Positions 11,903 to 56,724 of a DNA stretch of 64,000 nucleotides are shown here, piece after piece. This stretch comes from Candidatus Uhrbacteria bacterium (GTDB taxonomy: Bacteria > Patescibacteriota > Patescibacteriia > UBA9934 > GWF2-40-263). The position numbers were made by a program, and so were the translations under genes. The stretch lies in contig JAERTI010000056.1 in NCBI GenBank assembly GCA_016844925.1, positions 6,978 through 70,977 on the forward strand, given 5' to 3'. The first letter of the stretch is position 1; every line of letters starts with the position of its first letter. The notes below the pieces were generated by a model, which was not told where the DNA came from, searched no databases, and worked only from the letters and a program-made list of their open reading frames with translations.

Positions 11903-11919
11903 ACAAGCATGCTTTTTTG
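11903..11919 (+). terminator. intrinsic terminator after the methyltransferase gene
   Basis: Self-complementary AAGCATGCTT followed by TTTTTTG. Confidence 0.5.
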
Positions 11920-12001
11920 ATTGTTTACACTTGACGTGCTGACACTCATCGCCTAACGTCCAGGCGTCGCTAAGCCATTCGAGGCGACGTGGAGTGTTGA
12001 C

Positions 12002-13489: not shown

Positions 13490-13511
13490 TACGAGTGCCA
13501 AGCAGGCACCT

Positions 13512-13539
13512 CCCATCCTGAGAAACGGGTGGGTTTTTA
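13512..13539 (+). terminator. intrinsic terminator after pepA
   Basis: CCCAUCC-ugagaaac-GGGUGGG stem (7 bp with one G-U pair) followed by TTTTT. Confidence 0.5.
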
Positions 13540-13569
13540 TATTGACAGATTCGTTCTACTGGGAAATAA

Positions 13570-19276: not shown

Positions 19277-19378
19277 TTCGGCAGGGTTGCCGATGCAGGA
19301 CCGTAGGCGAAAAAGCCTTACTTGTCAATGCTTGTCTGACACGAAGTGCATAAGGTATCATCCTCACGAAACCTATCT

Positions 19379-20377
19379 ATGAGACAAAAAGCCAACAAAA
19401 AATCACCAGAGGAACTGCGCGCAATTCTTGCCGCAGAGACGTTTAAGCGCACGTCGATTTCCTTTTACCGTTATGTGCACATTGAAGATCCAGACACACT
19501 AAGGGATAAACTTTACGACCTTTGGAAGGCCATGGGGGTCCTTGGTCGGATCTATGTGGCTAAGGAGGGGATTAATGCACAGCTGAACGTGCCTGAGCAT
19601 AATTTCGATGCATTCCGTGTTGCAGTGGATCTCTTTCCTGAGTTCAAAGATGTGCCATTTAAGGTGGGGCTTCATGAGGACGCCCCTTCATTTATCAAGC
19701 TGACGATTAAAGTACGAAAGTTTGTTTTGGCCGACGGTCTCGAACCAGGAGAATACGATGTAACGAATGTCGGAACGCATTTGAGCGCGCGTGAGTTTAA
19801 TGAGGCAATGGATGAGGGGGCGATTGTTGTAGACATGCGCAATAACTACGAGAGTGACATTGGTCATTTTGAAGGAGCGCTCTTGCCTGATGTAGAGACT
19901 TTTCGAGAAGAACTTCCTGTGGTCGGTGAAATGCTCAAAGGCTCTGAGGAGAAAAAGATTCTCTTGTATTGCACCGGTGGCATTCGTTGCGAGAAAACAA
20001 GCGCGTATTTGAAAGAGAAGGGGTTTCAAGATGTGAATCAGCTTCATGGGGGGATCATCGACTATAAACATCAGATTGATCGCGAAGGATTGGAATCGAA
20101 GTACAAAGGCAAGAATTATGTCTTTGATGGCCGCAGCGCTGAGCCTGTGACAGATGACGTGCTAGGAACGTGTTATCAGTGCAAGAGTCCTGCGGATACA
20201 CACGTGAACTGCGCGAATACAGTGTGTCACGTTCTGTTTATTCAGTGTGATGACTGTCAGGAGAACATGTCTGGTTCTTGTTCTGATGCTTGTAAGCAAA
20301 TTGCGGAACTCCCTGCTGAGCAGCAGAAACGAAAGCGTGCTGGGGTGAAAAGTGGAACAAAGATGGTAATGCGCTAA
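19379..20377 (+). CDS. trhO: rhodanese-domain tRNA U34 hydroxylase-like protein (TrhO/YceA, UPF0176 family)
   Basis: Rhodanese active-site loop CTGGIRCEK and a Cys-rich C-terminus (CYQCKSPADTHVNCANTVCH). Start taken at MRQKANKK, downstream of a TTGTCT-N18-TATCAT promoter-like site. Confidence 0.7.
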   Translation: MRQKANKKSPEELRAILAAETFKRTSISFYRYVHIEDPDTLRDKLYDLWKAMGVLGRIYVAKEGINAQLNVPEHNFDAFRVAVDLFPEFKDVPFKVGLHEDAPSFIKLTIKVRKFVLADGLEPGEYDVTNVGTHLSAREFNEAMDEGAIVVDMRNNYESDIGHFEGALLPDVETFREELPVVGEMLKGSEEKKILLYCTGGIRCEKTSAYLKEKGFQDVNQLHGGIIDYKHQIDREGLESKYKGKNYVFDGRSAEPVTDDVLGTCYQCKSPADTHVNCANTVCHVLFIQCDDCQENMSGSCSDACKQIAELPAEQQKRKRAGVKSGTKMVMR

Positions 20378-25898: not shown

Positions 25899-26282
25899 CT
25901 ATTCCAAGATCCCTCTCTTTTTCATCACCCCCTCTGTCTTTTTAATAATTTCGGCCAAAGAGTGTTCTGTTTTTACAAGATAGAGATCGATGCCGCACTG
26001 TTTGCACGCTTCTCGATCTTCTTCTTGAGCGAGAACGGTAAGAACAATAACAGGCGTGTCTTTAAGAGCTTCGTTTGCACGGATCTCTTTGAGAAAATCA
26101 AAGCCATCTTTGACTGGCATAATGAGATCCAGCAAGACAAGATCGGGTTTTTCAGATTGCAGTAATTTCAATCCTTCATCACCGTTTTCCGCTGTAAGCA
26201 TTTCGTACCCTGCTTTTTCAAAGCCGTACTTGTAAGTCTTTGTGTAGAATTCATCATCTTCGATGAGGAGGATTTTTTTCAT
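25899..26282 (-). CDS. stand-alone response-regulator receiver domain (CheY-like)
   Basis: KILLIEDDE with the acidic pocket, phospho-acceptor LLDLIMP, and a conserved K in VKTEHS. No output domain. Confidence 0.8.
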   Translation of the reverse strand: MKKILLIEDDEFYTKTYKYGFEKAGYEMLTAENGDEGLKLLQSEKPDLVLLDLIMPVKDGFDFLKEIRANEALKDTPVIVLTVLAQEEDREACKQCGIDLYLVKTEHSLAEIIKKTEGVMKKRGILE

Positions 26283-26283
26283 A

Positions 26284-27852
26284 CTAGGCATTAGATTTTT
26301 TAGAAGCTACCGTTGGGAAGGAAAGGAAGAAGGTTGAACCTTTTCCTTCGCCCGGTGATTTGAACCAAAGTTGACCATTGAGTAATCGAACGATCATTTT
26401 TGATATGTAGAGTCCTAAGCCAGAACCACTGGCATAGACCTTTCGTGCATTATCTGCGCGGAAAAATCTTGTAAAGATTTCTTGTTGCTCGTGTTTGCTT
26501 ATGCCAATTCCATTATCTTTGATAGACAGAATAACAACTCCATCTACTTCCTCTAGAGAGATGTCGACTCTTGCACGTTGTTTACGTGAGTAATGAGCGG
26601 CGTTGGTTAAGAGATTTTGAATCACTTGCTCTGTAAGGTTTTTGTCGACACGAATTTGCGAAAGAGTCTCTGATGGTTTTTTGTAGTTGATCTTAATGCG
26701 TTTTTCTTCAAAAAGATGACTCAGTGCCCCGATAGTTTTTTCGACTAAAGACGGGAGGTCAACACGACGAAGTTGTAGATCAATTTTTCCGCCCTCAAGA
26801 CGAGAGATATCCAGCAGTTGGTCAATAAGACCGATCATACGTTCTGTTGAGACCTCGATGTCCGTTAAGAATTCTTGTTGGTGTGTGGTGAGGTGGTCTA
26901 TTCCTTCGCTCTTAAACGTTTCTAGGAGGAGTTTAATGCCTCCAATGGGGGTGCGGAGCTGATGAGAGGCAAGAGAGACAAATTCCGTCTTCATCATGTC
27001 AATTTGTTTCTCTTTTGTGATATCAACGGCAACCCCAATGAGTCCAATAGGTTTGTTGTTTTGTTTGAGAACAAAGTTATGCATCAGGGCTGGAAATGTT
27101 GAACCATCTTTTCTTTTGTGGACGATTTCACCTGAAAGATGACCCTTTTTGAGAAGTGTTTTATTAAAAGTCTCAACAGTAGTCAGTTCAGTTTCCGGGT
27201 GAAAGATTGATAAATGTTTTCCAATAAGTTCCTCTTTTTTGTATCCATGATCCTTCGCCCATGCATTGTTGACGTACGTAATATTCCCCTCGAGGTCGGC
27301 AAAGGCGATCTGTTGTGTGGATTGATCGATAACAAATTTATAACGATTGAGCTCGCCTTCGATTTTCTTTCTTTCGGTTATATCCTGTACATTTCCTATC
27401 GACCTCAGCGCTTTTCCGTTTTTATCGTATTCTGTATCACAACGTTCGTTCACGATACGAATACTGCCGTCGGGGCGAATAATTCGGTGCTCAATGTTAT
27501 AAGGCTGCCTTTTCTTAACAGAAGTCCAGTAAGCCTTATCCACTTTCTTTCTATCATCGGGATGCACTCTCTCTAAGAACGCTTCATAGGTTGCTGCAAA
27601 TTCTTGTGGCTTTAAACCAAAGATTCGATAGATTTCGTCAGTCCAGGTGAGTACGTTTTTTTCGATATCCAAGTGCCAACTTCCAAGATGGGCAATCTCT
27701 TGCGACTTGTTTAAGTTTCGCTCACTTTCTTCTAGTGCCTTTTTGGCTTTCTCGAGCTGGAAATACGCATCTCGAAGTAGGGAAACTTCAATTTCCAGAC
27801 CTTCAATCTTTTCGTGCAATTCGTCCACTTGTTTTTTTGTGTCTTTAGACAT
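26284..27852 (-). CDS. cytoplasmic sensor histidine kinase with an N-terminal coiled coil, tandem PAS domains, HisKA and HATPase_c
   Basis: H-box SHQLRTPI, N/G boxes (NLLTNAAHYS, DNGIGI, GSGLGL), and PAS-like repeats. No TM segment. Confidence 0.85.
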   Translation of the reverse strand: MSKDTKKQVDELHEKIEGLEIEVSLLRDAYFQLEKAKKALEESERNLNKSQEIAHLGSWHLDIEKNVLTWTDEIYRIFGLKPQEFAATYEAFLERVHPDDRKKVDKAYWTSVKKRQPYNIEHRIIRPDGSIRIVNERCDTEYDKNGKALRSIGNVQDITERKKIEGELNRYKFVIDQSTQQIAFADLEGNITYVNNAWAKDHGYKKEELIGKHLSIFHPETELTTVETFNKTLLKKGHLSGEIVHKRKDGSTFPALMHNFVLKQNNKPIGLIGVAVDITKEKQIDMMKTEFVSLASHQLRTPIGGIKLLLETFKSEGIDHLTTHQQEFLTDIEVSTERMIGLIDQLLDISRLEGGKIDLQLRRVDLPSLVEKTIGALSHLFEEKRIKINYKKPSETLSQIRVDKNLTEQVIQNLLTNAAHYSRKQRARVDISLEEVDGVVILSIKDNGIGISKHEQQEIFTRFFRADNARKVYASGSGLGLYISKMIVRLLNGQLWFKSPGEGKGSTFFLSFPTVASKKSNA

Positions 27853-27861
27853 GGGAGTGGA

Positions 27862-28236
27862 TTAGCTGGCAATAACCTTTTTGACTCGGGAGACTAATTC
27901 GTCGCGCTCAAATGGCTTGGTAATATAGTCCATAATACCATGCTGTTTGAGCTTATCGAGACGTTCATCGGAGATTTCAAGAACGGTCAAAAAGATGACT
28001 TTGTACTTCGGTTTGATCTTTGAGATTCGCGAAAACAAATCCCAACCAGACATATCAGGCATCATGATATCCAAAAGAAGAAGATCAAAATTGTTTACAT
28101 CAACTTCTTTCAGTGCCCGGTCGCCACTTGATACGCTGACAACTTCGTACCCTTCATTTTCTAAAATAGTCTTTACTACTTCCAATACGTCTCGCTCGTC
28201 ATCAACATGAAGGATTCGTTTTTTTGCTTTTGGCAT
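27862..28236 (-). CDS. stand-alone response-regulator receiver domain
   Basis: ILHVDDE, LLLLDIMMPDMSG, and a K in ITKP. 124 aa, no output domain. Confidence 0.8.
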   Translation of the reverse strand: MPKAKKRILHVDDERDVLEVVKTILENEGYEVVSVSSGDRALKEVDVNNFDLLLLDIMMPDMSGWDLFSRISKIKPKYKVIFLTVLEISDERLDKLKQHGIMDYITKPFERDELVSRVKKVIAS

Positions 28237-28249
28237 AGGATTACGCTCG

Positions 28250-29710
28250 TTATTTCGTTGGTTTATGTAAGTTCTTTTTTAATGGCAGTGTAAACGTAAA
28301 CGCACTTCCTTTGCCCAGACCAGCACTTTTTGCAGAAATCTTGCCACCATGAGACACGACAAAACCTTTGGCAATGGAAAGACCTAGACCAGTGCCACCG
28401 TACCTTCTTGTTATTTCGCTATCTGCTTGAAAGAAGGGGGTAAACAGTTTTTTCAAGGTTTTTTTATCCATACCGATACCCGTGTCAGTTACCGTTACTC
28501 GTACGTTGTTTTGTGTTCTACTTACATCAACATCAACACGACCGCCCTCAGGGGTAAATTTGACCGAGTTGTCCAGAAGATTGTGCATCACCTCGCTTAT
28601 GCGTTTGGTGTCGATGACGAGCAGAGGGAGGTTTTCGGCATGGCTTAAGGTAATGTCTATCTGTTTATTACGTGCGATTGATTGCATGTCATTAACGGCA
28701 TCTGAAATAATTTGACCCAAATCAGCCTCCTCAAGAATGAGCCTTATCTTTCTTGAACGAATTTTCGTGATAGAGAGTACATCCGAAACAAGATCGTTTA
28801 GATGATCACCATTTCGCGCAATCATTTCTATGGCATTTTTTTGTTTCTTATTCAGTTTTCCATAATCACCACCTAGAAGAAGCTGAGCTTGAGACTTGAT
28901 TGGAATAAGAGGGGTCTTAAGCTCATGTGTTGCCGTGTTTAGGAAGTCATCTTTAAGTTTGTTTAGTTCTTCTAATTTAGTAGCCATATCGTTAAAACTA
29001 GACGCAAGATGACCAATCTCATCCTTTGATTGTATATCGATCTTTGTATCAAGTTTTCCTTTCCCAAACTTCGTGACAGCCTTCTCAAGATTCAGAAGGG
29101 GTTTCACGATACTCCTTGAAACGATGACGGAAATTATGGTCGTAAGAACAAAAAAAGACAGTACGAGTAATAGCGTTAAGATCCTGTTTTGTTCGATGGC
29201 TGCTTGTGTCTGTTCGTAGGTTAACTCTTCCAATGATTGTGCAGCAGAAGAAACAGATTGCGATGTTATCAATAATTGAGAAATAATCCGTTCTTGCAGT
29301 GCCGTTACCAGTCCCAATGTTTCTGCTGAAGCTTGTTCTTCTGTGAGTGTTAATTCGTAGTGATAGTTTTCCACTTCTTTTTGAAAGAGATCGTCAAGGA
29401 GGAGATATTCAGCGCGAATATCTCTAACGAAATCTTGATTTCGATTATCTGTTCCGATTTTATTCAGTAGTAGGAGTCCCGAGTGATGACGTGTGTTCCA
29501 TTGTTCTAGTACACGGTCTTCTCGATGTAGGAGGTACTCATTTAACAGTAGGTTTAACTCAAAGACCGCTGTTTGAATATCAGATGCTAAGACATGTTCC
29601 TTTTCTTGGTCACTAATAATATTCGTTGTTGTAAAGACGGAAACATAAAGAAAGGAAATCAGAACAAGTGATACCAGAGTGTTGATGAAGAGTTTGTATT
29701 GGATCCTCAT
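28250..29710 (-). CDS. membrane sensor histidine kinase (two TM, periplasmic sensor region, HAMP, HisKA, HATPase_c)
   Basis: TM helices near residues 10-30 and 170-195, H-box THELKTPL, and N/G boxes (NLLDNSVKFT, DTGIGM, GGTGLGLSI). Confidence 0.85.
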   Translation of the reverse strand: MRIQYKLFINTLVSLVLISFLYVSVFTTTNIISDQEKEHVLASDIQTAVFELNLLLNEYLLHREDRVLEQWNTRHHSGLLLLNKIGTDNRNQDFVRDIRAEYLLLDDLFQKEVENYHYELTLTEEQASAETLGLVTALQERIISQLLITSQSVSSAAQSLEELTYEQTQAAIEQNRILTLLLVLSFFVLTTIISVIVSRSIVKPLLNLEKAVTKFGKGKLDTKIDIQSKDEIGHLASSFNDMATKLEELNKLKDDFLNTATHELKTPLIPIKSQAQLLLGGDYGKLNKKQKNAIEMIARNGDHLNDLVSDVLSITKIRSRKIRLILEEADLGQIISDAVNDMQSIARNKQIDITLSHAENLPLLVIDTKRISEVMHNLLDNSVKFTPEGGRVDVDVSRTQNNVRVTVTDTGIGMDKKTLKKLFTPFFQADSEITRRYGGTGLGLSIAKGFVVSHGGKISAKSAGLGKGSAFTFTLPLKKNLHKPTK

Positions 29711-29714
29711 GGGC

Positions 29715-30746
29715 TTATCGTATGATCGTAACTGCTTCAGGTTTCACTTCTTCCAAGGCGTGCAGGTAAATATAATCGAGATAATTTGGCATCTGCTCAC
29801 TTTCAACGAGATCGTTGTTGATTGCCCATCGTGCTTCAGCCTCGAGGACTCTGATCAAGGACTGCTCTAAGGTGATATCGAATGTGAACTCTTCCCAAAG
29901 GGTGATCATACTCTCTGTGTCCAGGTTGAGTCTTGTTGCGACAATTTCTTGAGATTCCTCTTTGTGCTGTTTGATGAATTCAGTGGCGGCATCCACCGCC
30001 TGCACAAAACGTTTGACTGCTTCAGGTTCAGATTTAAGGAAGGCATTCGTACTCACAAAGTTAAATGTTTCGTTGTAGATATCCGAGCTCGGTAACCTGA
30101 TAGCCATATCTCCTAAGAGGCTCACTGCATTTGTTCCGTGCGGTTCCCAGATAACAATGGCGTCAACACGTCCCTTGGCTAAAGCGTCTGGCAAATCAGA
30201 AGGGGCGATGTCGATAGCTTCTACCTCGGAGGACAAGATGGCGTTGTTCGTCAAAAAGGCATCTAGAAAAAATTGTCCAGTCGTGCCCATAGGGGTGCCG
30301 ACTTTCTTTCCGCGCAAATCTTCTGCGCTTGTCACCCGGTCATTGCGAGCGATGACTTTTACGTCTTCATAGGAGCTGACAAACGTGCCAAAGACAGAAA
30401 AATCACTTCGCTCAAAACTGTTAAGCATGATGGGGGTAGGGGCGACGGTAGAAATATCAATCCCCTGATTGCCCTCGAGCATTGCCATGAGGCTTTGTCT
30501 TCCTGAGTCAAACTCTTTGATGGTGAGGTCCAGACCGTATTCTTGAAAGTATCCCTTTTCCTCAGAAATCCAGACAGCTGCGGGAAGTAAGCTCGCTTCT
30601 ACTCCGAGCGTTGCCTTCAAGAGAGGTTCTTCTGTAGGGCTTGGTTGTGTTTGTGTTGTCCAGAAGTAACCACTCAGAATAAGAGCGCCGGTAAAGAATG
30701 TGACTGCGCCCCAGAACCAGGGGGGGATGTCATGCTTAATGTTCAT
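29715..30746 (-). CDS. periplasmic substrate-binding protein, NMT1/SsuA/TauA-like, with an N-terminal anchor; first gene of the signalling operon
   Basis: N-terminal TM/signal sequence, then a type 2 periplasmic-binding fold (VGTPMGTTGQFFLD...VDAIVIWEPH). Ends 4 nt before the HK gene. Confidence 0.65.
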   Translation of the reverse strand: MNIKHDIPPWFWGAVTFFTGALILSGYFWTTQTQPSPTEEPLLKATLGVEASLLPAAVWISEEKGYFQEYGLDLTIKEFDSGRQSLMAMLEGNQGIDISTVAPTPIMLNSFERSDFSVFGTFVSSYEDVKVIARNDRVTSAEDLRGKKVGTPMGTTGQFFLDAFLTNNAILSSEVEAIDIAPSDLPDALAKGRVDAIVIWEPHGTNAVSLLGDMAIRLPSSDIYNETFNFVSTNAFLKSEPEAVKRFVQAVDAATEFIKQHKEESQEIVATRLNLDTESMITLWEEFTFDITLEQSLIRVLEAEARWAINNDLVESEQMPNYLDYIYLHALEEVKPEAVTIIR

Positions 30747-31960: not shown

Positions 31961-32482
31961 TTACGATGTTGGAATGAGGAGGTGGTAGAAAAATGAAACG
32001 AATGGATCAATGTCCGGTCCGTAGACAATGGCCCCACCAAGAGCTCCTGTAATGGTGATGGCAAGAAGTCCTGCTAATGAGAGAATGATGACAAGTGGTC
32101 TGAAGAGAATGATTGCCGTAAGTCGATTGAGGATTTTGTCGATGATACTGGGCAGATGGAACTTGTTCTTTTGTAAGAAGGGTCGAAGCACTGCTGACCA
32201 AAGATACGCTACAGCAAGAATAGAAAAGATCCAGGATGTTGCATTGGCAAATAAGGCATGTGTCTCGACGAGGACCGTCTCGCCTACACGCTCTTCGGCT
32301 ACTTCGCCAGTGGAAAGGGCTAGCCAGGAAGTAATCGTACCGAGAAAGAGAAACGCAAGCTTGATGGAGGTACATGAAGATTTCCATCTAGAGATCCATC
32401 TTTGTGGAACGGCCTCAAGGAGGCTGTAGAAAACCAGCATGGCAATGGGGAAATGGACGACCATGGGGTGAACATCAAACAT
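31961..32482 (-). CDS. polytopic membrane protein (DUF2231-like)
   Basis: HPMVVHFPIA N-terminal motif and four TM helices. Confidence 0.4.
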   Translation of the reverse strand: MFDVHPMVVHFPIAMLVFYSLLEAVPQRWISRWKSSCTSIKLAFLFLGTITSWLALSTGEVAEERVGETVLVETHALFANATSWIFSILAVAYLWSAVLRPFLQKNKFHLPSIIDKILNRLTAIILFRPLVIILSLAGLLAITITGALGGAIVYGPDIDPFVSFFYHLLIPTS

Positions 32483-32484
32483 AG

Positions 32485-33426
32485 CTAGGTGTTTAGGGGT
32501 TTGGTAACGATTGGAATAACTTTATAGAGGTAGAGCATAAAAACAAGGGCAAGGAAAATAGCACCCATGTACTCGTGGAAGAGTTGAAAGGCGAGTTCGT
32601 GCGAAACGTATCCGCCAATAAAGAGAATAATTGCCACTCGAAGGATGTTGAGATAATACAGCGCAATAACACCAACGATGCCTGCGAGAGTAGCTCGTCC
32701 GTATAAAATGTGACGTTCTGAAGAAAGCCAGATGAGAACGATGATGTAAAGGAAAGCAAACGTGACAATTGAGTAGGCGCCAGCGCAGACGGGCCCGATG
32801 TACAAGATGAAGTTGTTTAGTCCAACAGTGAAGTAGTCCAAATTATAGATCGCCTCGTCTGTGACAAGGGGAGTGATCTTTGAGAGTGAGGTGAGAATGG
32901 AGGTTGAGATGGCTTCCCAGTGTAGCTTGATGGTTAGCTGGGCGATGGTATAGCTGAGGTAAAGACCCGCGATGGTGATGGTTTCTTTAAGAAAGTATCT
33001 GATGGCTGTTGCCCCAACGAGGGCGAAGAAGAGAAAAAAGAAGCTGATACTGAATGTTGAAAGAAGCAGGAGGTTGGGAATGATTTCGTGCAGTGTGCCG
33101 AGTTGGTTCACCGGGAAGATGAGGATTGCCAGAGCAAGAAGACTAAAGAGAAAAGATTCCGCTTTCGATATTCGGTAGAGTGGAAGTGTTTTTACAATGT
33201 GCCAACGGTAGAAAATGAAAAGAAGAAAAAGAGGGTAGGGGCTTAAGAGGATCCACCAATCATTGAGGCCATATCTATATCCATGTAGGGCCGAGGTGAT
33301 TGTAGGGTGGACGATGACAATGAGTGTATAGAGGCCAAGGAGCACAAGCACGCGTAAAACAAAACGCCTCCCTCCGGGGGAGGCGTTTTTAAATGCGCTA
33401 CGGATGTGTTTCCAGTGTGTGGTCAT
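32485..33426 (-). CDS. exosortase/archaeosortase-family membrane transpeptidase (putative)
   Basis: About 8 TM helices. Candidate catalytic Cys in YIGPVCAGAYS, downstream NILRVAII (Asn and Arg) and HEYMG. Immediately adjacent to a PEF-CTERM protein. Confidence 0.5.
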   Translation of the reverse strand: MTTHWKHIRSAFKNASPGGRRFVLRVLVLLGLYTLIVIVHPTITSALHGYRYGLNDWWILLSPYPLFLLFIFYRWHIVKTLPLYRISKAESFLFSLLALAILIFPVNQLGTLHEIIPNLLLLSTFSISFFFLFFALVGATAIRYFLKETITIAGLYLSYTIAQLTIKLHWEAISTSILTSLSKITPLVTDEAIYNLDYFTVGLNNFILYIGPVCAGAYSIVTFAFLYIIVLIWLSSERHILYGRATLAGIVGVIALYYLNILRVAIILFIGGYVSHELAFQLFHEYMGAIFLALVFMLYLYKVIPIVTKPLNT

Positions 33427-33428
33427 GT

Positions 33429-35708
33429 TTAGGCGTGTGGCTCGCCGAGGTACTCTGGCATCTTTTGGTGCAGCATGTAGCCAAAGAGGAGAAAGAGAAG
33501 TGTGTAGACGTAGGTGGAGAATTCGGGCACACCGCCAACAGGGACATCTGGATCACCTCCTCCAAACTCAGAAAGGTGTTTTGTCTGGAACGAGCAAGTT
33601 TGAGAGAAGACCGTGCAGGAAACGTTTTCACCATCCAGCTGCAGTCGCGTCCAGTTTCCTTGACTCGCGTCCTTACTGTAGACCATGAGTTCTGTGCCGT
33701 TTGCAACCCCAGGAGTGTTCATCGTGAGGGTAATGGCATTACTTAACTCAACCTTCTTGTCGTCAAAACCGAAGCTCATCTTTCCGGCCGCTGGGACGGG
33801 GAGCGTGGAGACGTTTGGGTTGTTGCCAAGTGTCATGGTGCTGAAGTCTGTCGTTGTCTCTAGATCTCCTACACTCTTGGTTGTCATGATGGTGTTTGCT
33901 GGGATAACGACAGCGACGGTGTCAGAGAGAGATGACGAGTTGGTGTATGCGATGGACTTCTGCAATTGCACGCGACTTGTTGATTCTGTTGTGTCCCCGT
34001 ACCCGCTAACGGGTTCGGCAAGAGCTGAATCCAATACCGTAAAGCTGATATTGTCTCGAGTGGCTTTTACGATGTCTGTGTCTTGTGTGGTGAATGTCAC
34101 CTCTGTTGGTGAACTACTTTTGTTACCGTAGTAGTCGTAGGCCCAGATGTTTGCCGTGTATTCTGTGTTCGGTGAAAGGGTATCAAGGTTTACCAAGATA
34201 TTTCCCTTAAAGTCAGGGTAGGCAAGCAAGGGTCTTGTGGAAGAGCTGATCTCCGTGTCTGTTTCTTGAACACCGGTCGAGCCTTGTTTGATGAAAATTT
34301 TATAGGATTGGAAAAACGTGTCGTTTGATGGGGATCCTAGTTTGAATCCCACAATGTTTTGTCCAATAAATACAGGAGTAAGCGCCCCTGGCGTGCTTGG
34401 AGGTGTACTGTCCGAGAGGGTGGAGAACGTCACACTGGATGCAGCCTTCCTTGAATTTCCTGCGGCATCGTAGGCCCAAATGTTCGCTGTATATTGTGAC
34501 GCTGGAACGAGGCCGCTCAAGGTAACTGAGCTTTGCCCACCATAGCTTATGTGGCTGAGTGCTGGCGCGGTCGTCTTATCAATAACTTCATCCTCATCGC
34601 CCGGCTCTGAGCTACCTTCTTTGTAGTAGATAACATACTCGGCGAAATTTTCATCAGAGGTGGCTGCTCCGAAGTTGAGTGTTACCTCTGAGTAGCTTTG
34701 AGAAGCAAGACTTAAGGAACCTGGTGGGTCTGGTTCTACGACATCTGTACCAGTAAACGAAAAACTTGCTGTCACAGAGATGTCTTTCTGGACGCCAGTC
34801 TCTGTTCGTGGGTTGGTTGTGGAGCCATCGCTCCAGGAGACGAATTCAAAGTCTGTGTCCGCGACGGCGGTGACGGCTGAACCTGATGTGTTATGGCTTA
34901 CCGTTTGGCTCGTACTTCCTGTGATTGACCCGCCGATATCAGCGGTATAGCTGAGGCTGTATGTCGGTGCATAGGTAAGGATCTCTTCGTCGTAGATGCA
35001 CCTGACAGAAGATGCACTCTTTTTCCCATTTCTTCTAACAATGGCTGAGGATGAACTCGAGGTGAGCTTCAGGCCGTAGGCACGGCGTTTGTTCTCGATT
35101 GTTGAGGACCAGTACCGAGCAAGTCTTCCTCGACGCTTCCAAACTTTTTTTCCAGATACGCGCCCTACACCATAAGCACCAAAGTCAAAAGAGTCTTTTG
35201 CTCCGGCGTTTGGAATGATCCAGTTATTAATCCCTACTTCTTTTAATGCTCCACCGGCTGTCGTGGCGCCGCCGGCTTCTGTAACAAGTGTGTCGAGATC
35301 AAATTTTGTCGGTACATGCCATCCCACGGGGCAAATACCTTGATGTACGGCATTTGGTTGGCATGATGGGCTTAGGCTGTTTTTGCAGGAGAGCGCCATG
35401 CCCATGGCTGTGTGCCATTGGTAAAGACCACCATCGTTATCACAGTTTGCGTCACTGTTGTTGTAACAATATTTTTGAAAGGTGCCCCCGTCGGCGTCTG
35501 CTTGGTTTCCGCTTACATCAATGCGCGTGCCGTAGTTGAGGTTCTTGCCAAACCAACATTGCCCACCAATAAGAATCGTGGGGTAGGAGACTCCGCCATA
35601 AGAAACGGCATCTCCACAGGTAAATTCTTCCTGAGCGTTTAGGGATTGTGTGGGCCAGAGCCCAGAAATAAACGTGGCAATGAGTATCAGCGTGCCAATA
35701 CGTTTCAT
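33429..35708 (-). CDS. large surface protein: signal peptide, Fibrobacter-succinogenes-major-paralogous (Fib_succ_major) domain, two or more fibronectin-III-like modules, and a C-terminal PEF-CTERM sorting signal
   Basis: Signal peptide MKRIGTLILIATFISGLW. CWFGKNLNY...GGLYQWHTAMG...CPVGWHVPT matches the Fib_succ_major signature. Repeated ...YTANIWAYD..GN.S... modules. C-terminus GGVPEF-STYVYTLLFLLFGYML-HQK. Confidence 0.7.
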   Translation of the reverse strand: MKRIGTLILIATFISGLWPTQSLNAQEEFTCGDAVSYGGVSYPTILIGGQCWFGKNLNYGTRIDVSGNQADADGGTFQKYCYNNSDANCDNDGGLYQWHTAMGMALSCKNSLSPSCQPNAVHQGICPVGWHVPTKFDLDTLVTEAGGATTAGGALKEVGINNWIIPNAGAKDSFDFGAYGVGRVSGKKVWKRRGRLARYWSSTIENKRRAYGLKLTSSSSSAIVRRNGKKSASSVRCIYDEEILTYAPTYSLSYTADIGGSITGSTSQTVSHNTSGSAVTAVADTDFEFVSWSDGSTTNPRTETGVQKDISVTASFSFTGTDVVEPDPPGSLSLASQSYSEVTLNFGAATSDENFAEYVIYYKEGSSEPGDEDEVIDKTTAPALSHISYGGQSSVTLSGLVPASQYTANIWAYDAAGNSRKAASSVTFSTLSDSTPPSTPGALTPVFIGQNIVGFKLGSPSNDTFFQSYKIFIKQGSTGVQETDTEISSSTRPLLAYPDFKGNILVNLDTLSPNTEYTANIWAYDYYGNKSSSPTEVTFTTQDTDIVKATRDNISFTVLDSALAEPVSGYGDTTESTSRVQLQKSIAYTNSSSLSDTVAVVIPANTIMTTKSVGDLETTTDFSTMTLGNNPNVSTLPVPAAGKMSFGFDDKKVELSNAITLTMNTPGVANGTELMVYSKDASQGNWTRLQLDGENVSCTVFSQTCSFQTKHLSEFGGGDPDVPVGGVPEFSTYVYTLLFLLFGYMLHQKMPEYLGEPHA

Positions 35709-35774: not shown

Positions 35775-36170
35775 CTAGATGTGTATAACAAAATCGAGGA
35801 GTATGCCTGCGATAAGCGCGAGGCCTGAGAGGATGAAAATAATCTCGTAATTTAGCTGCGCTTTTGTGGTACTTAATGTTTGGACGATGTGCGAGAGAGC
35901 CTTCTTTTGACTCTGGGAGATGTCTTTGGTGTGTTTCACAGCCTCGATGAGGTGCTCGTCATCAATCAGCGAGGAAAACTGTTTCACCACCTTGTAGCGA
36001 CTCCAGAAGTAGATAATGAATCCGATCGTCCCGGTGTACCAGGCGATCTTTACCCACGTCGGCTCAAAGAAGTTCAGGACGATGATGATGCGATAGGAGA
36101 ACGTCGCCACAAGACCAATCCAAAAGTAGAGGAGTCGTAGGGGCTTAGGATCAGCTTTGATTTTTGTCAT
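35775..36170 (-). CDS. membrane protein (3 TM), unknown function
   Basis: Hydrophobic helices; no motif recognised. Confidence 0.45.
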   Translation of the reverse strand: MTKIKADPKPLRLLYFWIGLVATFSYRIIIVLNFFEPTWVKIAWYTGTIGFIIYFWSRYKVVKQFSSLIDDEHLIEAVKHTKDISQSQKKALSHIVQTLSTTKAQLNYEIIFILSGLALIAGILLDFVIHI

Positions 36171-43685: not shown

Positions 43686-46649
43686 TCAGTTATCAACGTC
43701 GAGCTCTAGTCCGGTACTCGTCATTTTGAACCCTTTAATCTCAATCTCTCCCGCGTGTACTTTTTTGTGGCAAGCGTTGCACAATGGCACAAGGTTGTAT
43801 TTGTGATCCTTGTGAAAGTGTTTAATGTAGCCATGCTCATTAGCGTTTTTTTGAGGAGCGATATGATGAATCTCCGAGACGGTATCACGACAGAGGCCAC
43901 AGCTCGTAGCGTAGAGATCCTTATTGTAGTTATTGCTTTGTTTTTTGGTGAGCAATGTTAAATCGTCTTCCTCTTGCGCGATTTGCTGACGAATCTTCGC
44001 TGCTAAGGCGAGGAATTTTTTGTCCATGTGTAACGATTCGGCAAACTCTAAACCATACACACTGCTCCCACTGCCTGTTTGCAATGTTCGGTCAAAAATC
44101 AATTTATCTGCTTTCTCATCATAATGAACATGTAAATGAACACTTACTACTTGCGGCAGTGCCTGTAACAAATCAATTCTTTGCAGTTGGTGTAAGTGGG
44201 TGGTGAACATGAATAACGCACCGATTTCTGAAAGACGTTGAATCGTTGCACTGACGATCGCAAGGGCAGAGAGCGTTTCTGTCCCACGACTTATTTCATC
44301 GCCGAGAATGAGACTTCGTGCCGTAGAGCGATTGAAAATGTTTTTCATTTCCATCATTTCCACCGCAAAAGAAGAAAGCCCCTTTTCAAAATTGTCTCTT
44401 GCAATAATGCGAGTAAACAGCTCTTGGAACAGCGTAAATCTCATTTGCTTGGCCGGAACAAAGAAACCACTTTGAGCCAAAATGATACACACACCCAAAC
44501 TTTTCATGAGCGAAGATTTTCCGCTCGAGTTTATTCCGTACAATAGAACGCCACGCGTGTCTTCGTCGGTCATCTTGGCCATGGTGGATGAAGATGTTGA
44601 CGCATCTTGCAACGACTTATCACCCATCACGACGTCGTTGGGAACATAAATCCCGTTTTCTTCGCGGGCTTCTACGAGAGGATGTCGGACATCCAATAAT
44701 TCCAAATAGGACGTTTCTTCAGGGCTGGTAAGAATTTGCGGGCGAACGAGATTATGAATCAAAGAAGCTTTGATATTAGAAAGTGCCACATCAATTTTTC
44801 CAATCGTTGTGATGAGAGTATTCATCAGATCACAATAGTTTGCATCAAGCTGCTCTAATTCACTGCGGAAGAGATTACGAACTAACGCGGAGATTTGTTT
44901 GTTCAAGAGCGAAATTTTCTCAGAAATTTCTCTGATGATTTCCGCCGTGATTTTTACATTGCCGGTTTGAATCTTTACGGTGAAATCACTCAGTGCATAC
45001 ACGGTGCCGTCAATTGATACATAGCTATCAGACAACGCCTGCTCAATTAAAAAGTACCTACTTTTTGTGATCGAAATATGATGTCCATCTTTCTCGAGAT
45101 GTTTAATCACAACATAATCACGTTCTGGCTTACCCGTTTGTTGTTCAATCAAATGAACAAATGCCGTCCGAATGGTTTCTAATTTTTCCTGAAGTTCATT
45201 TTTTTGTTTGATTAAACGATCGATCTCGTCGTTAAATCCGGCTTGAAAGAAACTTTGACTGATTTCACCTTGTGCGTACTTGCTCGTTTCATCCAAATTG
45301 AAAATGGTTTCTAAATGGAGAACAGCTTTTTCTAGGAGAGGTTGTTGCTCAACGAGTTCTGGGACAACGGATGAGCTTTCAATGCTGCTCAGGTGCTTTA
45401 AGATGCTCTGACTCGCAACCAAGGAATCATAAAGAAAATTGATTTCAAATGGATGCAGACGCGTAAGCTGAATGCGGCGTTTTAGGCGGTCAATATCATA
45501 GATATGCTTTAACTCCTCATCAATGTCCGCATAGATATAAATGAGCGCATCAGAGAGATCATAACGAGCCTCCAGTTCCGTTTGGTCAATGATTGGATTC
45601 GTGATTCGTTCCTTGAACAGGCGACGACCAAAACTGGTACGCGTGTTGTCAAGAAAACTGAGCACCGTCTGCTCGTTTGGATTAGGGGAAATGATGTTGA
45701 GTTGTTCGAGTGGATTGTTTCCTAGATACAGGAAGTTTTTGTCATTGATTTGTTGTGGTGCGGTAATGTTTTTCACCACCTCACGGTCATGCTCAATAAT
45801 AAACTCAAGCAAGATGGCCAACGCCTCAGATGCTAAGGGCTTTTTCTCTAAGTTTAAAAATTCAATCGATGATAAAAACGACTTTATGTCATAGCATTGT
45901 TTAAACAATTCGTTTTGATAGCCAATGGGCAAACGCTTGTTGTCCGTATGAACATTCAACTGTTCTGATAACTCTAAATACTGTCGAACGGTTTCTGGAA
46001 CGACATCTTGGCCTCCACACGTGAGCAGGACTTCATTCGGGTCATGCGATTTAAGCAGCGAAAAAAGCTGGTCTAACGCATACGTAGGGTCTTCCTGGGT
46101 ACTGTGAATTTCAAAAACGGACGTTCTCCCAGTGGTCACATCAATGGATGCGTAACCGACCGAGTAATTGTCTTTATGTTTCTCTACGATTAAAGACGTG
46201 GTGAAATTGTCATCGTTGTTGAGACTGTATTCAAAGTTGACTCCAGGAGACAAAATGTTGTCCAGATAACGCGTGACGTTTGGTGGTACACCCTGCTGTT
46301 TGATAATGACAATGGTGTACTTGTTCTCACGGATAAGTTTTTGCACATAGCGATCAAACGTCGCCGTAGGAAAACCAGCCATGAGTGGGTTCTTAACATT
46401 GTTTTCCAGAATGTTTTTGTTTTTTCGCGTCAACTGAATGTTTAAAATTTCAGCAATCTCTTTTGTTTTACCAATCTGCTTCGTTGCATTATCAACCCCG
46501 TAGATTTCAAAAAAAGATCCGACTTCCATCAGTACGACTGTGTCAGTTCCATACTTTTCTTCGAACAGCTCTTGTAGCTGTAAATAGATGGCGATCAATG
46601 ACTGATTTGTATCGTCAAGTAGCTCTTGAACACGTGCATGTATACCCAT
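43686..46649 (-). CDS. MutS-family protein fused to a C-terminal HNH endonuclease (MutS7-like architecture)
   Basis: N-terminal mismatch-binding domain (LMEVGSFFEIYGVDA), a domain V ABC ATPase (Walker A GINSSGKSS, signature SSFAVEM, Walker B LILGDEISRGT, then TTHLH), and a C-terminal HNH (CGLCRD...HHIAPQ...N...CNACHKKVH). Low GC relative to flanking host genes. Confidence 0.85.
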   Translation of the reverse strand: MGIHARVQELLDDTNQSLIAIYLQLQELFEEKYGTDTVVLMEVGSFFEIYGVDNATKQIGKTKEIAEILNIQLTRKNKNILENNVKNPLMAGFPTATFDRYVQKLIRENKYTIVIIKQQGVPPNVTRYLDNILSPGVNFEYSLNNDDNFTTSLIVEKHKDNYSVGYASIDVTTGRTSVFEIHSTQEDPTYALDQLFSLLKSHDPNEVLLTCGGQDVVPETVRQYLELSEQLNVHTDNKRLPIGYQNELFKQCYDIKSFLSSIEFLNLEKKPLASEALAILLEFIIEHDREVVKNITAPQQINDKNFLYLGNNPLEQLNIISPNPNEQTVLSFLDNTRTSFGRRLFKERITNPIIDQTELEARYDLSDALIYIYADIDEELKHIYDIDRLKRRIQLTRLHPFEINFLYDSLVASQSILKHLSSIESSSVVPELVEQQPLLEKAVLHLETIFNLDETSKYAQGEISQSFFQAGFNDEIDRLIKQKNELQEKLETIRTAFVHLIEQQTGKPERDYVVIKHLEKDGHHISITKSRYFLIEQALSDSYVSIDGTVYALSDFTVKIQTGNVKITAEIIREISEKISLLNKQISALVRNLFRSELEQLDANYCDLMNTLITTIGKIDVALSNIKASLIHNLVRPQILTSPEETSYLELLDVRHPLVEAREENGIYVPNDVVMGDKSLQDASTSSSTMAKMTDEDTRGVLLYGINSSGKSSLMKSLGVCIILAQSGFFVPAKQMRFTLFQELFTRIIARDNFEKGLSSFAVEMMEMKNIFNRSTARSLILGDEISRGTETLSALAIVSATIQRLSEIGALFMFTTHLHQLQRIDLLQALPQVVSVHLHVHYDEKADKLIFDRTLQTGSGSSVYGLEFAESLHMDKKFLALAAKIRQQIAQEEDDLTLLTKKQSNNYNKDLYATSCGLCRDTVSEIHHIAPQKNANEHGYIKHFHKDHKYNLVPLCNACHKKVHAGEIEIKGFKMTSTGLELDVDN

Positions 46650-46693
46650 AACGCCCTACATTTTAGCAACTCTCGCAATAAAATCTAGTAAGA

Positions 46694-46723
46694 CAAAAAA
46701 CCACCATTGCTGGTGATTTTTTC
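46694..46723. terminator. bidirectional intrinsic terminator, separating the upstream minus-strand operon from the MutS-HNH promoter region
   Basis: AAAAAACCACCA-ttgc-TGGTGATTTTTT. Confidence 0.7.
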
Positions 46724-46768
46724 TTGGCTCCCGCTACTGGACGCATTCAGAACAGCGAAATGGTCAGA

Positions 46769-46791
46769 TTTGAAGCCGATGATGGTTCAGT
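46769..46791 (+). repeat. direct-repeat copy B (TTGAAGCCGATGATGGTTCAGT), 5' of the MutS-HNH gene
   Basis: Matches 43652-43673 at 20 of 22 positions. Confidence 0.6.
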
Positions 46792-46800
46792 TTGTTTGAG

Positions 46801-47190
46801 CTACTTTTTGAATCTTTCGACTCGTGTTGAATAGTCAGCATAATCGAAGGTCACTACTGCAATCCAAAACAAGAACAATGCCAATCGAAAGACAAGAACA
46901 TTTCCGACCATCAATACGAGCAGTACATCCAATGTAATAAAGAGCATTCCGATCACAATCATTGAAAAGAACGTTGTAACATGACCCCAGATGAGGGCAT
47001 TTTTTGTTTCGGCATTCTTGTAACTGTAAATGAAGTTTGATGTGATGGGGGCTATGACGATCAGTCCAACAAAAAGAAGTAAGGTATCCAATCTTTCAAC
47101 TGGCATTCGAGCAACTTCGTGTTGCGTGAGTATGTAGAAAGGAATAAGCACCACATGTATTAGAATGTTTTTTGAGACAATCGATTTCAT
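46801..47190 (-). CDS. membrane protein (4 TM), unknown; in the AT-rich element
   Basis: Hydrophobic helices; no motif. Confidence 0.45.
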   Translation of the reverse strand: MKSIVSKNILIHVVLIPFYILTQHEVARMPVERLDTLLLFVGLIVIAPITSNFIYSYKNAETKNALIWGHVTTFFSMIVIGMLFITLDVLLVLMVGNVLVFRLALFLFWIAVVTFDYADYSTRVERFKK

Positions 47191-47205
47191 AAAAGTTTGT
47201 ATTTG

Positions 47206-47415
47206 TTACTTGTTTTTTGGAGTATACGTAATCATTTCCTTTCCGTAATACTCATTCACGGCAGCGGCGGCGGCAACTTTGAGCTGCTCCAGCTCTTTCT
47301 GTGAACTCAAAGGTTCATTGTTCATCATTTTTTCGATCAAAAGAGAGTTCAATTTTGTTTGAAATTGAAGTTCAATGATCGTTTTTCCAATGTCGATGTC
47401 TCCGATTTTGATCAT
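47206..47415 (-). CDS. small hypothetical protein
   Basis: 69-aa ORF, 1 nt from the upstream gene. Confidence 0.35.
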   Translation of the reverse strand: MIKIGDIDIGKTIIELQFQTKLNSLLIEKMMNNEPLSSQKELEQLKVAAAAAVNEYYGKEMITYTPKNK

Positions 47416-47416
47416 A

Positions 47417-47746
47417 CTATCTTGTATTTACCTCCTGTCGCAGGCTTTCGTTTTCTTCCTGCAAAATCCGAATCTGCTCCAAGAGCGAGGAATAGGCTTC
47501 TCCACGGTCATTCAACAACTCTTCAATCACTTGATCATTTGAAGAAACTTCACCTTTTGTCTCGTATACGATCTTACCAAGGTCAATCATCTCGGTAAGC
47601 ACGAAAACAAACGCAGCAACAACAAAAGCTACCAAAATGTAGCTCATAGTATTTTGTTGGATTTGTTGTGCGTGGTATTTGATCCTGTCCGTAATGGTCA
47701 GATCGCCACCCGTTTCGATTTTCAGTTTTTCATCGGGCATACTCAT
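47417..47746 (-). CDS. single-TM coiled-coil protein, unknown
   Basis: TM segment MSYILVAFVVAAFVFVL followed by a coiled-coil tail. Confidence 0.4.
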   Translation of the reverse strand: MSMPDEKLKIETGGDLTITDRIKYHAQQIQQNTMSYILVAFVVAAFVFVLTEMIDLGKIVYETKGEVSSNDQVIEELLNDRGEAYSSLLEQIRILQEENESLRQEVNTR

Positions 47747-47832
47747 TACAATTTTGTCACATCACTTGAATGCGTAAAGTATAGCAAAATAGCAGTTTTT
47801 TCGGTAGTATTACCGTAAATTGACCCAAAGAT

Positions 47833-48966
47833 GTGATCAAAACTGTAACAGACAGCCTGCAACGACAATACGATACGTTCATCGATGAGCCAGATGACTG
47901 GTTTTTCTTTTTGGGCTTGGCCGAGTACATGCAGTATTTGCGTACAACCGAGCTGACAATCCCGCTCATCGAAGGCGTTGAAGAGCAAATGCACCAATTT
48001 GACGATGAGTTCAAGCAGATCCATGCAGCCGTTGAAAAAGAAGCCAAACGAGCTTTTGAGGTCATTCAGGGGCGTATAGCAAAAGCAGGGATCGAAGATG
48101 AAATCATTGAGCGTGAAACAAACGAGTATCACGGTTTTCTTGACGGCACATGGAGCAGCACCGCAAGCCTTGGGCAAAGCCTCTATCGAAACGTGCGAAA
48201 CATCGTGGAAAGACTGCGAAAACTGGATAGAGATGATCTGGTCAAGGAATACTTTGTTCCGTTTGTTCCTGATCCAAAGTTGACTGAAATCTACACAATT
48301 ACACCAAGCCGTGACCGACTTGATGACCTTGAAAAGAAACAAGAGCAATCAAAGAAAACGCAGATTTGGGGTAGCTATTGGCACTTGGAACGTGCCAGAT
48401 GGGCAATCATGGACGGGTTGGACTACATGAACAGGCAGAAAGGAACCTTGCGTGGATCATTGAACCGCATCAATGCGAGTCCTCTGATCCGTGAAATGGC
48501 CGCCATGGAACGACGAGATCCAAATCCGCAACTGCAACGGTTCATCAAAAGAGATTACCTATTTCATGCTCGACGGTTTCACACGTTTGTTTTGAATACT
48601 CTCGCCAAGGTTCCAAAGTATTTGCTCGATGATCAGGAAAACAAAGATGCTGGTAGTGTTCAGCTTGCATACAGCGACGGCACAATCCACATCAGGGGAC
48701 AGTCACTCAGAATTACAAAGCGGCAGCATTCACTCCAAAATCGTCTCATGTTGAAGCTGTTTAGCGATCTGTATGTAAAGTGGGATTTTGAGGATGTTTT
48801 TGATGACCTGTACGAAGAGTCCCGTGGTAAAGATGATTGGAAAAAGCTGTACAAATTGATTGATGCCGTAAACGACAAAGTAGCCGTTGAATCAGATGCC
48901 AAGGAATTGATCCGCAAGAATCGTTACGAGATTTGGATTGATCCTGACTACCTGCCACCGAAGTAG
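47833..48966 (+). CDS. hypothetical protein (377 aa) in the element; possible C-terminal winged-helix domain
   Basis: Long ORF with no motif. The antisense 200-aa ORF is treated as a shadow. Confidence 0.45.
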   Translation: MIKTVTDSLQRQYDTFIDEPDDWFFFLGLAEYMQYLRTTELTIPLIEGVEEQMHQFDDEFKQIHAAVEKEAKRAFEVIQGRIAKAGIEDEIIERETNEYHGFLDGTWSSTASLGQSLYRNVRNIVERLRKLDRDDLVKEYFVPFVPDPKLTEIYTITPSRDRLDDLEKKQEQSKKTQIWGSYWHLERARWAIMDGLDYMNRQKGTLRGSLNRINASPLIREMAAMERRDPNPQLQRFIKRDYLFHARRFHTFVLNTLAKVPKYLLDDQENKDAGSVQLAYSDGTIHIRGQSLRITKRQHSLQNRLMLKLFSDLYVKWDFEDVFDDLYEESRGKDDWKKLYKLIDAVNDKVAVESDAKELIRKNRYEIWIDPDYLPPK

Positions 48967-52175: not shown

Positions 52176-52208
52176 CAGCCAATTGCTCTGCCACTGAGCT
52201 ACCCCCGA
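52134..52208 (-). tRNA. tRNA-Asn (anticodon GTT), CCA encoded
   Basis: Manual fold: acceptor TCGGGGG/CCCCCGA, D arm GCTC-AGTGGCA-GAGC, anticodon arm ATTGG-CTGTTAA-CCAAT, variable loop GGGTC, T arm GAGGG-TTCGAAT-CCCTC, discriminator G, then CCA. Confidence 0.85.
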
Positions 52209-53446: not shown

Positions 53447-54130
53447 CTAGGAGCGGGTACACATGTAGTGGGTGTACCCGTTTTCGATGTGCTTGTAGAG
53501 CGAGGCGCAGGCCAGGAACATGGCTGCGGTACCCGCCAGGTCGATCAGGATCGGCATCATCTTCAGCGTGGCCAGTGGGTTGTCGCCCCAGTAGAGCGGC
53601 CTGGTGCCGAAGACCAGGATCACGATGAACACCACCTCGGCGTACACCTTGTACTTGCCCCACTGGTTGGCACCGCCGGTGTCCAGCTTCAGCCAACGCT
53701 TGACCGGACGGACCAGTGTGAGGGCCAGGGCCAGCAAGGTGATGGCAAAGACGATGCCCTTGTCCACACGCTCCAGACCGACGGTCCAAAGCAGTCCGAT
53801 GAAGCGGATCTTGTCCACCACCGGGTCCAGGGCGCGACCCATGTTGGTCACGCCACGGTGGTTCATCCGCTTCCAGACAGAGAGCTCTTCCTCTCTCTCC
53901 CGGCTCATGACAGGTTCGTCGCTCTGCTGGAACCGCGCGAGCGCGCCGTCCCACCAGTCCGTGAGGAAGCTCAGTGTGAGCACGCCGACGGCGGCCCAGT
54001 CCAGGTCCAGCTGGAACAGTCCGATGCCGATCAGGGCCAGAGCCCCTCCAGCGACTGTGACCCAGCAGGGAGTCGTCCAGTTCAGAGCCTGTCCGATGAC
54101 AGACTCCGAACGGCGCTTCATATCGTTCAT
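53447..54130 (-). CDS. CDP-alcohol phosphatidyltransferase family protein (PgsA/PIPS-like); high GC
   Basis: DWWDGALAR...D motif of CDP-alcohol phosphatidyltransferases and 5-6 TM helices. Start at MNDMKRR. Confidence 0.7.
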   Translation of the reverse strand: MNDMKRRSESVIGQALNWTTPCWVTVAGGALALIGIGLFQLDLDWAAVGVLTLSFLTDWWDGALARFQQSDEPVMSREREEELSVWKRMNHRGVTNMGRALDPVVDKIRFIGLLWTVGLERVDKGIVFAITLLALALTLVRPVKRWLKLDTGGANQWGKYKVYAEVVFIVILVFGTRPLYWGDNPLATLKMMPILIDLAGTAAMFLACASLYKHIENGYTHYMCTRS

Positions 54131-54141
54131 CCTACCTCTCT

Positions 54142-55203: not shown

Positions 55204-55277
55204 GATCGATTCCTCCAGTCCTCAGAATTGAGGAACGTGCAAATCTAACCATAAAACAGCCTCACGTCAAGGCTGTT

Positions 55278-56718: not shown

Positions 56719-56724
56719 AAGGGT

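Follow-up and report, generated by a model that had tools for sequence, protein, structure and literature searches.

The closest described relatives of the system reported here are enzymes of the exosortase/archaeosortase family, for which a Cys/Arg/His triad has been inferred (bioRxiv 10.1101/2023.06.07.544157). Mutagenesis of archaeosortase A (ArtA) showed that its conserved, predicted active-site residues are important (PMC6098224), archaeosortase C (ArtC) is given as the enzyme paired with the PEF-CTERM signal in a passage of PMC5244752 that cites Haft 2012, and PEP-CTERM systems are typical of diderm bacteria, where they often lie inside exopolysaccharide (EPS) loci (10.1101/2023.06.07.544157). 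In the open-access full-text literature we found no paper linking exosortases or archaeosortases with Candidate Phyla Radiation (CPR) bacteria or with Patescibacteria; a published account of Peribacteria, which makes no mention of exosortases, lists peptidoglycan, S-layer genes and a sortase A and gives fatty-acid synthesis as lacking (PMC4736985). Here we analyze a stretch of 64,000 nucleotides from a Candidatus Uhrbacteria bacterium (contig JAERTI010000056.1, positions 6,978 to 70,977; hereafter the window), which encodes a 313-residue membrane protein of the exosortase/archaeosortase type next to a 759-residue, predicted secreted protein with a sorting-type C-terminal tag. We consider it likely that the two form a cognate pair of enzyme and substrate in a CPR bacterium, and in our best reading of the data these bacteria would have an exosortase subfamily that has no name so far and a sorting signal cognate to it.

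The enzyme gene (32485..33426 (-)) and the substrate gene (33429..35708 (-)) are separated by a 2-nucleotide gap (TAA-AC-ATG), exactly as a sequence-only reading of the window had described them. The 313-residue protein belongs to the exosortase/archaeosortase superfamily. It scores 37.3 bits against the NCBIfam signature TIGR04178 (cutoff 23), a model that all 50 aligned relatives also match, and 26.2 bits, a marginal result, against Pfam's Exosortase_EpsH (PF09721; cutoff 25.7) over residues 35-300, so that the exosortase-like identity proposed for it holds up. Assignment to a named family, which had also been suggested as a check, succeeded for the signature model but for no named subfamily: in the NCBIfam scan none of the Xrt or Art cutoffs was reached. 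The nearest named subfamily is XrtE (TIGR04162; 21.3 bits, E 1e-4, cutoff 150), with 12.1 bits on the XrtX model (cutoff 170) and 11.7 bits on 8TM_EpsH (TIGR02602; cutoff 105.55), and the archaeosortase models gave no match at all, ArtC (TIGR03762) giving none at E<=1. By the curated models, then, the enzyme is outside the ArtC, XrtE, XrtA and ArtA subfamilies. Neither NCBIfam nor Pfam reveals a second domain in it, a fused CAAX-type protease included.

Because a word-indexed protein search with the enzyme returned two relatives only, recovery of the family needed an exhaustive HMMER search, which yielded 822 relatives from 1.84 billion representatives. Of these, 51 fell below 1e-30, and a length of about 310 residues is shared by nearly all. 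Across the 50 relatives of our closer alignment (A2; 22-40% identity), C214, G216, N260, R263, A279, F283 and H284 are invariant; across 81 more distant relatives (A5), the Cys, Arg and His are the sole invariant columns. The predicted catalytic nucleophile, Cys214 (codon TGC, 32785..32787 (-)), sits in GPVCAGAYS (residues 211-219), Arg263 (32638..32640 (-)) in the N260-I-L-R263 stretch of NILRVAII (residues 260-267), and His284 (32575..32577 (-)) in LFHEY. The first two motifs had been singled out from the sequence as a candidate Cys and a downstream Asn/Arg, a choice borne out by the invariance of C214, N260 and R263 among the 50 relatives. Judged by best E-value, XrtE is a better match than ArtC for every one of these 50 (4.2e-16 versus 4.4e-12, the latter the best of weak ArtC matches in 11 of them), and genuine XrtE accounts for four of the 81 distant relatives (E 7e-116), with no other named type among them.

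An AlphaFold2 model of the enzyme, built on the 50-sequence alignment, is confident, with a predicted local distance difference test score (pLDDT) of 93.9 and a predicted template-modeling score (pTM) of 0.83. It has eight long helices, and directly before the Cys, at residues 193-209, lies a small beta-sheet; hydropathy agrees with eight transmembrane (TM) helices, the number counted in the sequence-only reading. Judged from the charges of the loops, the N-terminus lies on the cytoplasmic side, as do residues 74-91, 138-148 and 234-243; for this reason C214, at the start of TM6, R263 in TM7 and H284 in TM8 are predicted to lie in the outer half of the membrane. Among solved structures, the enzyme has neither a sequence match nor a fold match (best Foldseek E 0.6).

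The substrate is a multidomain protein. Its first 25 residues (MKRIGTLILIATFISGLWPTQSLNA; 35634..35708 (-)) resemble a Sec signal peptide, with a hydrophobic stretch at residues 4-18 and an A-x-A-like site that would be cleaved at MKRIGTLILIATFISGLWPTQSLNA|QEE; these features agree with the earlier proposal of a secreted protein and suggest export by Sec. A FISUMP (Fib_succ_major) domain at residues 40-240 (34989..35591 (-)) exceeds the cutoffs of both TIGR02145 (112.7 bits, cutoff 41.65) and PF09603 (98.4 bits, cutoff 33.9), and is followed by an InlB B-repeat-like domain (Flg_new_2, PF18998; 30.6 bits, cutoff 23.6) at residues 250-317 (34758..34961 (-)) and by two fibronectin type III (FnIII) modules at residues 327-423 and about 436-541 (34086..34730 (-)). 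Pfam's fn3 model (PF00041) matches in two stretches with 38.3 bits; the limits given for the second module are a sequence-based estimate, and the internal repeat is visible in the comparison with an orthologue. Both the Fib_succ_major domain and the repeated FnIII-like modules had been recognized in the sequence-only reading. Residues 542-715 (174 residues; 33564..34085 (-)) form an uncharacterized C-terminal body domain that has no Pfam or NCBIfam match and is conserved in an orthologous protein from locus L014. Judged from its domain types, the FISUMP/InlB-repeat/FnIII ectodomain is probably an adhesin or a glycan-binding module. A 1127-residue protein homologous to the InlB-repeat region, P0050, is encoded on an unrelated contig and ends in ...GVPMPELFGFAFLVLFSTIRRKLKNK, a tail of the P-E-hydrophobic, helix and basic kind that is distinct from the tag described next.

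The tag occupies residues 716-759 (33432..33563 (-)), and the protein ends in ...GGGDPDVPVGGVPEFSTYVYTLLFLLFGYMLHQKMPEYLGEPHA. A Gly-rich linker, GGGDPDVPVGG, precedes VPEF (33519..33530 (-)), the helix STYVYTLLFLLFGYML (33471..33518 (-)) and, finally, HQK with ten further residues, MPEYLGEPHA (33432..33470 (-)). The elements reported earlier (GGVPEF, helix and HQK) are thus all present, but the ten residues after HQK had gone unmentioned. Measured against the tripartite layout, PEF and the helix are in place, and the basic part, only H-Q-K, does not stand at the very C-terminus. This weak cluster and its Glu-containing extension make the tag atypical for tripartite signals. In an alignment of six tails (A4), which include the window tail and that of its 95% orthologue, the P, E and F and a Pro after the helix are invariant.

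To ask how widely the tail occurs, we collected 31 loci carrying relatives of the enzyme, 11 from species-representative genomes, which were retrieved with a 12-sequence enzyme alignment, and 20 from metagenomes. The 11 genome carriers are Candidatus Peregrinibacteria, Peribacteria, Magasanikbacteria, Patescibacteria and one WOR-3 bin, all of them bacterial. A scan of every open reading frame (ORF) end in the related loci, about 390 kb in all, identified ten genes in eight loci, the window included, that share a tail composed of a Gly-rich linker, [VI]PEF, any residue, [TDE], [YF], a roughly 15-residue helix and a Lys; in eight of the ten tails the Lys opens the motif K-x-x-P-x-[YFI], followed by a short tail. 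Examples are GGVPEFQDYIYILTILIAVGMMYKVMPKFSIQKK (L003), GPVPEFHEYMLIISIGILLYFMAKKLPNISGTPMTKA (L006), LIPEFSTYMLMITFLIGMGMIQKKFKPEIKQTRY (L011), EGVPEFSTIVYLLMLAMFGYFIHRKMPEIQGGGLAT (L014) and GGVPEFSDYLFLLTIIIATGLMVKIVPNINVNPLKT (L025), and L003 and L025 hold two tail genes each. A hidden Markov model (HMM) of the tail scores the ten at 57-71 bits, values that are circular because the same tails trained the model, while all other ORF ends in the 390 kb stay at or below 9.7 bits.

The tail is attached to passengers of different kinds: FISUMP, InlB-type and fn3 domains in the window and L014, FG-GAP_2 beta-propeller repeats in five genes and nothing recognizable in three. One tail on unrelated passengers is a hallmark of a sorting signal. 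Signal-peptide-like N-termini are present in eight of the ten tail proteins; the genes at L003 6934..7941 and L028 6558..6860 are apparent fragments. Orthologues of the substrate keep the tail, a point that the sequence-only reading had put up for checking: it is carried by P0004, which is 95% identical, and by the L014 orthologue, which is 38-43% identical over its full length and encoded beside a 42%-identical enzyme. These comparisons support the tag as a genuine, conserved sorting-type signal tied to this enzyme clade. The further reading that the clade is an undescribed exosortase subfamily with its own signal (Gly-rich linker, [VI]PEF-S-[TD]-Y, helix, K-x-x-P-x-[YFI]), found mainly in Peregrinibacteria, Peribacteria and neighboring CPR lineages, stands in our judgment about evenly balanced.

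When the six-tail alignment was used as the query of a word-indexed protein search, 6 candidates came up and none of them scored, because the tails are too short and diverse for the index; viral contigs contained neither tail nor enzyme. A 32-residue fragment upstream of P0002 in L002 (...FWLQKVKHNIGDEDNIECLNY) was considered as a truncated tail and rejected, because the close relative L005 has a 1054-residue gene on the opposite strand there and no such ORF. In L007, a 717-residue protein (611..2764 (-)), the divergent neighbor of the enzyme homologue at a distance of 287 nucleotides, ends in a different and more textbook tripartite tail that includes Cys residues (...SGCGCNSGRMPDGAIWLPIFILLAVLLRRKRLQ), so that some members of the clade may use another flavor of signal.

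Is the tag a PEF-CTERM signal? The sequence-only reading had called it a textbook example, and by the curated test it is not. Against NCBIfam at E<=10, the window tail alone matches neither TIGR03024, the PEF-CTERM model, nor any other model. When nine related tail queries were used (seven distinct tails from related loci and two trimmed versions), two reached 13.2 and 11.9 bits against the cutoff of 23 and none passed, with the proviso that HMMER filters may hide weaker matches to TIGR03024. This is the sole curated model of a sorting domain, as opposed to a whole substrate, that any related tail touches, and it is the closest curated model for the two tails just mentioned. Together with the P-E-F directly abutting the helix and the weak ArtC matches among the relatives, it is what one would expect if a bacterium had acquired a PEF-CTERM/archaeosortase C system of the true archaeal type. 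Such an origin appears highly improbable to us: TIGR03762 and TIGR03024 both fail at their cutoffs, the window enzyme giving no match at E<=1 and the window tail none at E<=10; the 50 relatives favor XrtE over ArtC; the distant relatives include true XrtE and no named archaeosortase; the named carriers are CPR metagenome-assembled genomes and the single WOR-3 bin; and the conserved extension after the helix is absent from the 25-position PEF-CTERM model. The earlier interpretation was right in kind, a sorting enzyme with a tagged substrate, but its specific PEF-CTERM label was wrong, as the partner is not ArtC either.

The pairing of tail and enzyme is reflected in gene order. A flank of 3 kb or more is available for 23 enzyme loci. 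Eight of these contain a tail gene, and in seven of the eight it lies less than 1 kb from the enzyme gene, in all relative orientations (P about 6e-5, assuming uniform placement in the available flank). The pairing in the window exceeds chance, because seven further independent loci have the same tail beside a homologous enzyme. Locus L014 holds a pair orthologous to that of the window, which has kept the linkage with the gene order reversed, its substrate gene lying downstream rather than upstream of the enzyme gene. In the readable part of this genome (about 84 kb), there is one enzyme gene and one tail; the single substrate proposed in the sequence-only reading is conjectural for the genome as a whole, and L003 and L025 each hold two tail genes.

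Several observations weigh against a cognate pair. The window tail matches no curated model of a sorting signal, ten residues with two Glu among them come after its weak basic cluster, and the enzyme's Pfam score is barely over threshold. In addition, 15 of the 23 well-flanked loci have no tail gene nearby, so that adjacency is not the rule. The placement of the window near Peregrinibacteria was read from the identity of the metagenome-assembled genomes that contain relatives. The weak cluster and the solitary enzyme genes would equally be expected if the C-terminal helix were a permanent membrane anchor and the gene adjacency incidental or due to some other functional link, and the conserved cytoplasmic K-x-x-P-x-aromatic motif could then be a retention or interaction signal. 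A permanent anchor would not account for an invariant PEF at the outer boundary of the helix across unrelated passengers, for the tail gene being the immediate neighbor of the enzyme gene in seven independent loci and in all orientations, or for an intact catalytic triad in the enzyme, and we hold it to be very unlikely.

On the reading of a cognate pair, we propose the following model. The 759-residue protein would be exported through Sec by way of its N-terminal signal peptide, and its C-terminal helix would hold it transiently in the cytoplasmic membrane, with VPEF at the outer face and the short K-x-x-P-x-aromatic tail inside. The enzyme, whose catalytic residues would lie in the outer half of TM6 (Cys214), TM7 (Arg263) and TM8 (His284), would recognize VPEF and the helix and cut at or near the motif via a thioacyl intermediate. 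The new C-terminus may then be transferred to an acceptor in the envelope, by analogy with archaeosortase A. Peregrinibacteria, Peribacteria and their CPR neighbors are ultra-small bacteria, and fatty-acid synthesis is missing in some of them. Because no outer membrane is known in CPR cells, a membrane lipid head group would be the most plausible acceptor and is our preferred guess. The outcome would be the display of the FISUMP/InlB-repeat/FnIII ectodomain on the cell surface.

Covalent anchoring of the substrate is drawn in this model from ArtA, whose substrates become lipid-anchored (PMC6098224, PMC7157517). The enzyme might instead cut the tag and merely release or shed the protein, acting as a maturation protease with no covalent attachment. 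Endoproteolysis, plus lipidation for ArtA, is all that has experimental support in the family, for which one-step transpeptidation is unresolved (bioRxiv 10.1101/2023.06.07.544157), and no acceptor-related gene is conserved beside the pair. The fate of ArtA substrates points the other way, as do the passengers (FG-GAP repeats, FnIII, InlB repeats), which are typical of cell-surface proteins, and the Cys/Arg/His triad, which mirrors that of transpeptidase sortases. On balance, release without attachment seems unlikely, and anchoring remains our preferred outcome for the cognate pair.

The pair is embedded in a tightly packed, same-strand neighborhood. A DUF2231 membrane protein (31961..32482 (-)) is encoded 2 nucleotides downstream of the enzyme gene, and a 131-residue protein with two TM helices (35775..36170 (-)) upstream of the substrate gene. 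Both were considered as parts of the system and rejected, because they are not conserved in any related locus; apart from the substrate gene, no neighbor in the window, with DUF2231, the 131-residue TM protein, TruB and DUF218 among those compared, is conserved beside the enzyme elsewhere. No EPS locus surrounds the pair, and a scan for promoters and terminators between 31 and 37 kb gave no more than chance. In four other loci, the immediate and divergent neighbor of the exosortase-like gene, at 0-18 nucleotides, encodes a DedA-family (VTT domain) membrane protein: L011 5309..5974(-), L027 786..1538(-), L029 1032..1745(-) and L031 5381..6085(-). DedA proteins have been linked to lipid flipping, and a connection with a lipid acceptor is therefore conceivable; neither the window nor its extensions yielded a DedA homologue. 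A stand-alone gene for an Rce1-like/CAAX-type protease lies about 30 kb from the enzyme gene, at 63744..63998 (-) and continuing beyond the window (L036 10615..11304), with no evident linkage to the exosortase-like gene.

Elsewhere in the window, the feature at 50613..52208 comprises a large serine recombinase (Resolvase, Recombinase and Zn_ribbon; 520 residues) that ends against a tRNA-Asn(GTT) at 52134..52208(-). A Logan contig, which represents another assembly of this organism, breaks off at exactly this point, and this boundary may be the edge of an integrated element. Base composition is markedly mosaic: in 2-kb blocks, the content of guanine plus cytosine (GC) is 0.59-0.64 in some (1..2000, 12001..14000, 18001..20000 and 54001..58000) and 0.41 in others (26001..30000 and 44001..48000), while GC skew is positive over nearly the whole window. 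A high-GC block at 11858..13516 contains overlapping long ORFs on both strands without a Pfam match. A SAM-I riboswitch (56762..56894 (-)), at 45.9 bits just above the Rfam gathering score of 44.4, lies upstream of an S-adenosylmethionine synthetase gene (55609..56718(-)).

What is the relevance of such a pair in these organisms? CPR bacteria probably live attached to host cells, and surface proteins are their likely points of contact, yet little is known about how these proteins are anchored. In Peregrinibacteria-type genomes, the tag marks a recognizable group of surface proteins made up of FISUMP/FnIII proteins and FG-GAP propellers, and it points to an ArtA-related anchoring route in a bacterium from which no outer membrane is known. 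If the model is correct, CPR bacteria would use archaeosortase-like, probably lipid-linked C-terminal anchoring alongside classical sortase for the display of their adhesin repertoire, and this enzyme family would have a new recognition element in the conserved cytoplasmic motif after the helix. We supply seed alignments for two models missing from current annotation libraries, those of the enzyme clade and of the VPEF tail, which should be useful for annotating CPR surface proteomes and for studies of the CPR envelope. The conceptual advance is incremental, adding one more flavor to a long list of exosortase and sorting-signal pairs, and will not surprise the specialist.

How does the window pair relate to the described systems? 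With XrtE/VPEID-CTERM (TIGR04162) it shares the opening V-P-E of the signal, and among the named subfamilies it is XrtE that scores best with the window enzyme and with all of its 50 relatives. The enzyme nevertheless falls far under the XrtE cutoff, and XrtE is a fusion of about 516 residues with a CAAX-type protease (P0003, pepcterm_CAAX matches), whereas the window enzyme is short and unfused; its motif is VPEF-S-T-Y instead of VPEID, and its hosts are CPR bacteria. The likeness to ArtC/PEF-CTERM (TIGR03762/TIGR03024) consists in the P-E-F that abuts the TM helix. Here the models stay below cutoff for the relatives and do not match the window sequences, the hosts are bacterial rather than methanogen or anaerobic methanotrophic (ANME) archaea, a Gly-rich linker stands before the motif, and a conserved K-x-x-P-x-[YFI] after the helix replaces the terminal cluster of Arg and Lys.

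XrtA/PEP-CTERM (EpsH; TIGR02602, TIGR03109) has in common with the window enzyme the family signature, the architecture of eight TM helices and the Pfam EpsH match. It differs in that the window enzyme remains far from the TIGR02602 cutoff and in that the window pair is not within an EPS locus. The experimentally studied ArtA/PGF-CTERM system of Haloferax volcanii belongs to the same superfamily and has the same Cys/Arg/His triad, and in it a tripartite C-terminal signal gives way to a lipid anchor, in a cell that has no outer membrane (PMC6098224, PMC7157517), a likeness that for the window system would extend to the proposed mechanism. Unlike the window pair, ArtA acts on a PGF motif and in the context of archaeal lipids, and the ArtA models miss the window enzyme. 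Compared with all of these, the system described here is distinguished by its Gly-rich linker, the extended VPEF-S-T-Y motif, a weak basic cluster, the Pro motif after the helix and its CPR hosts.

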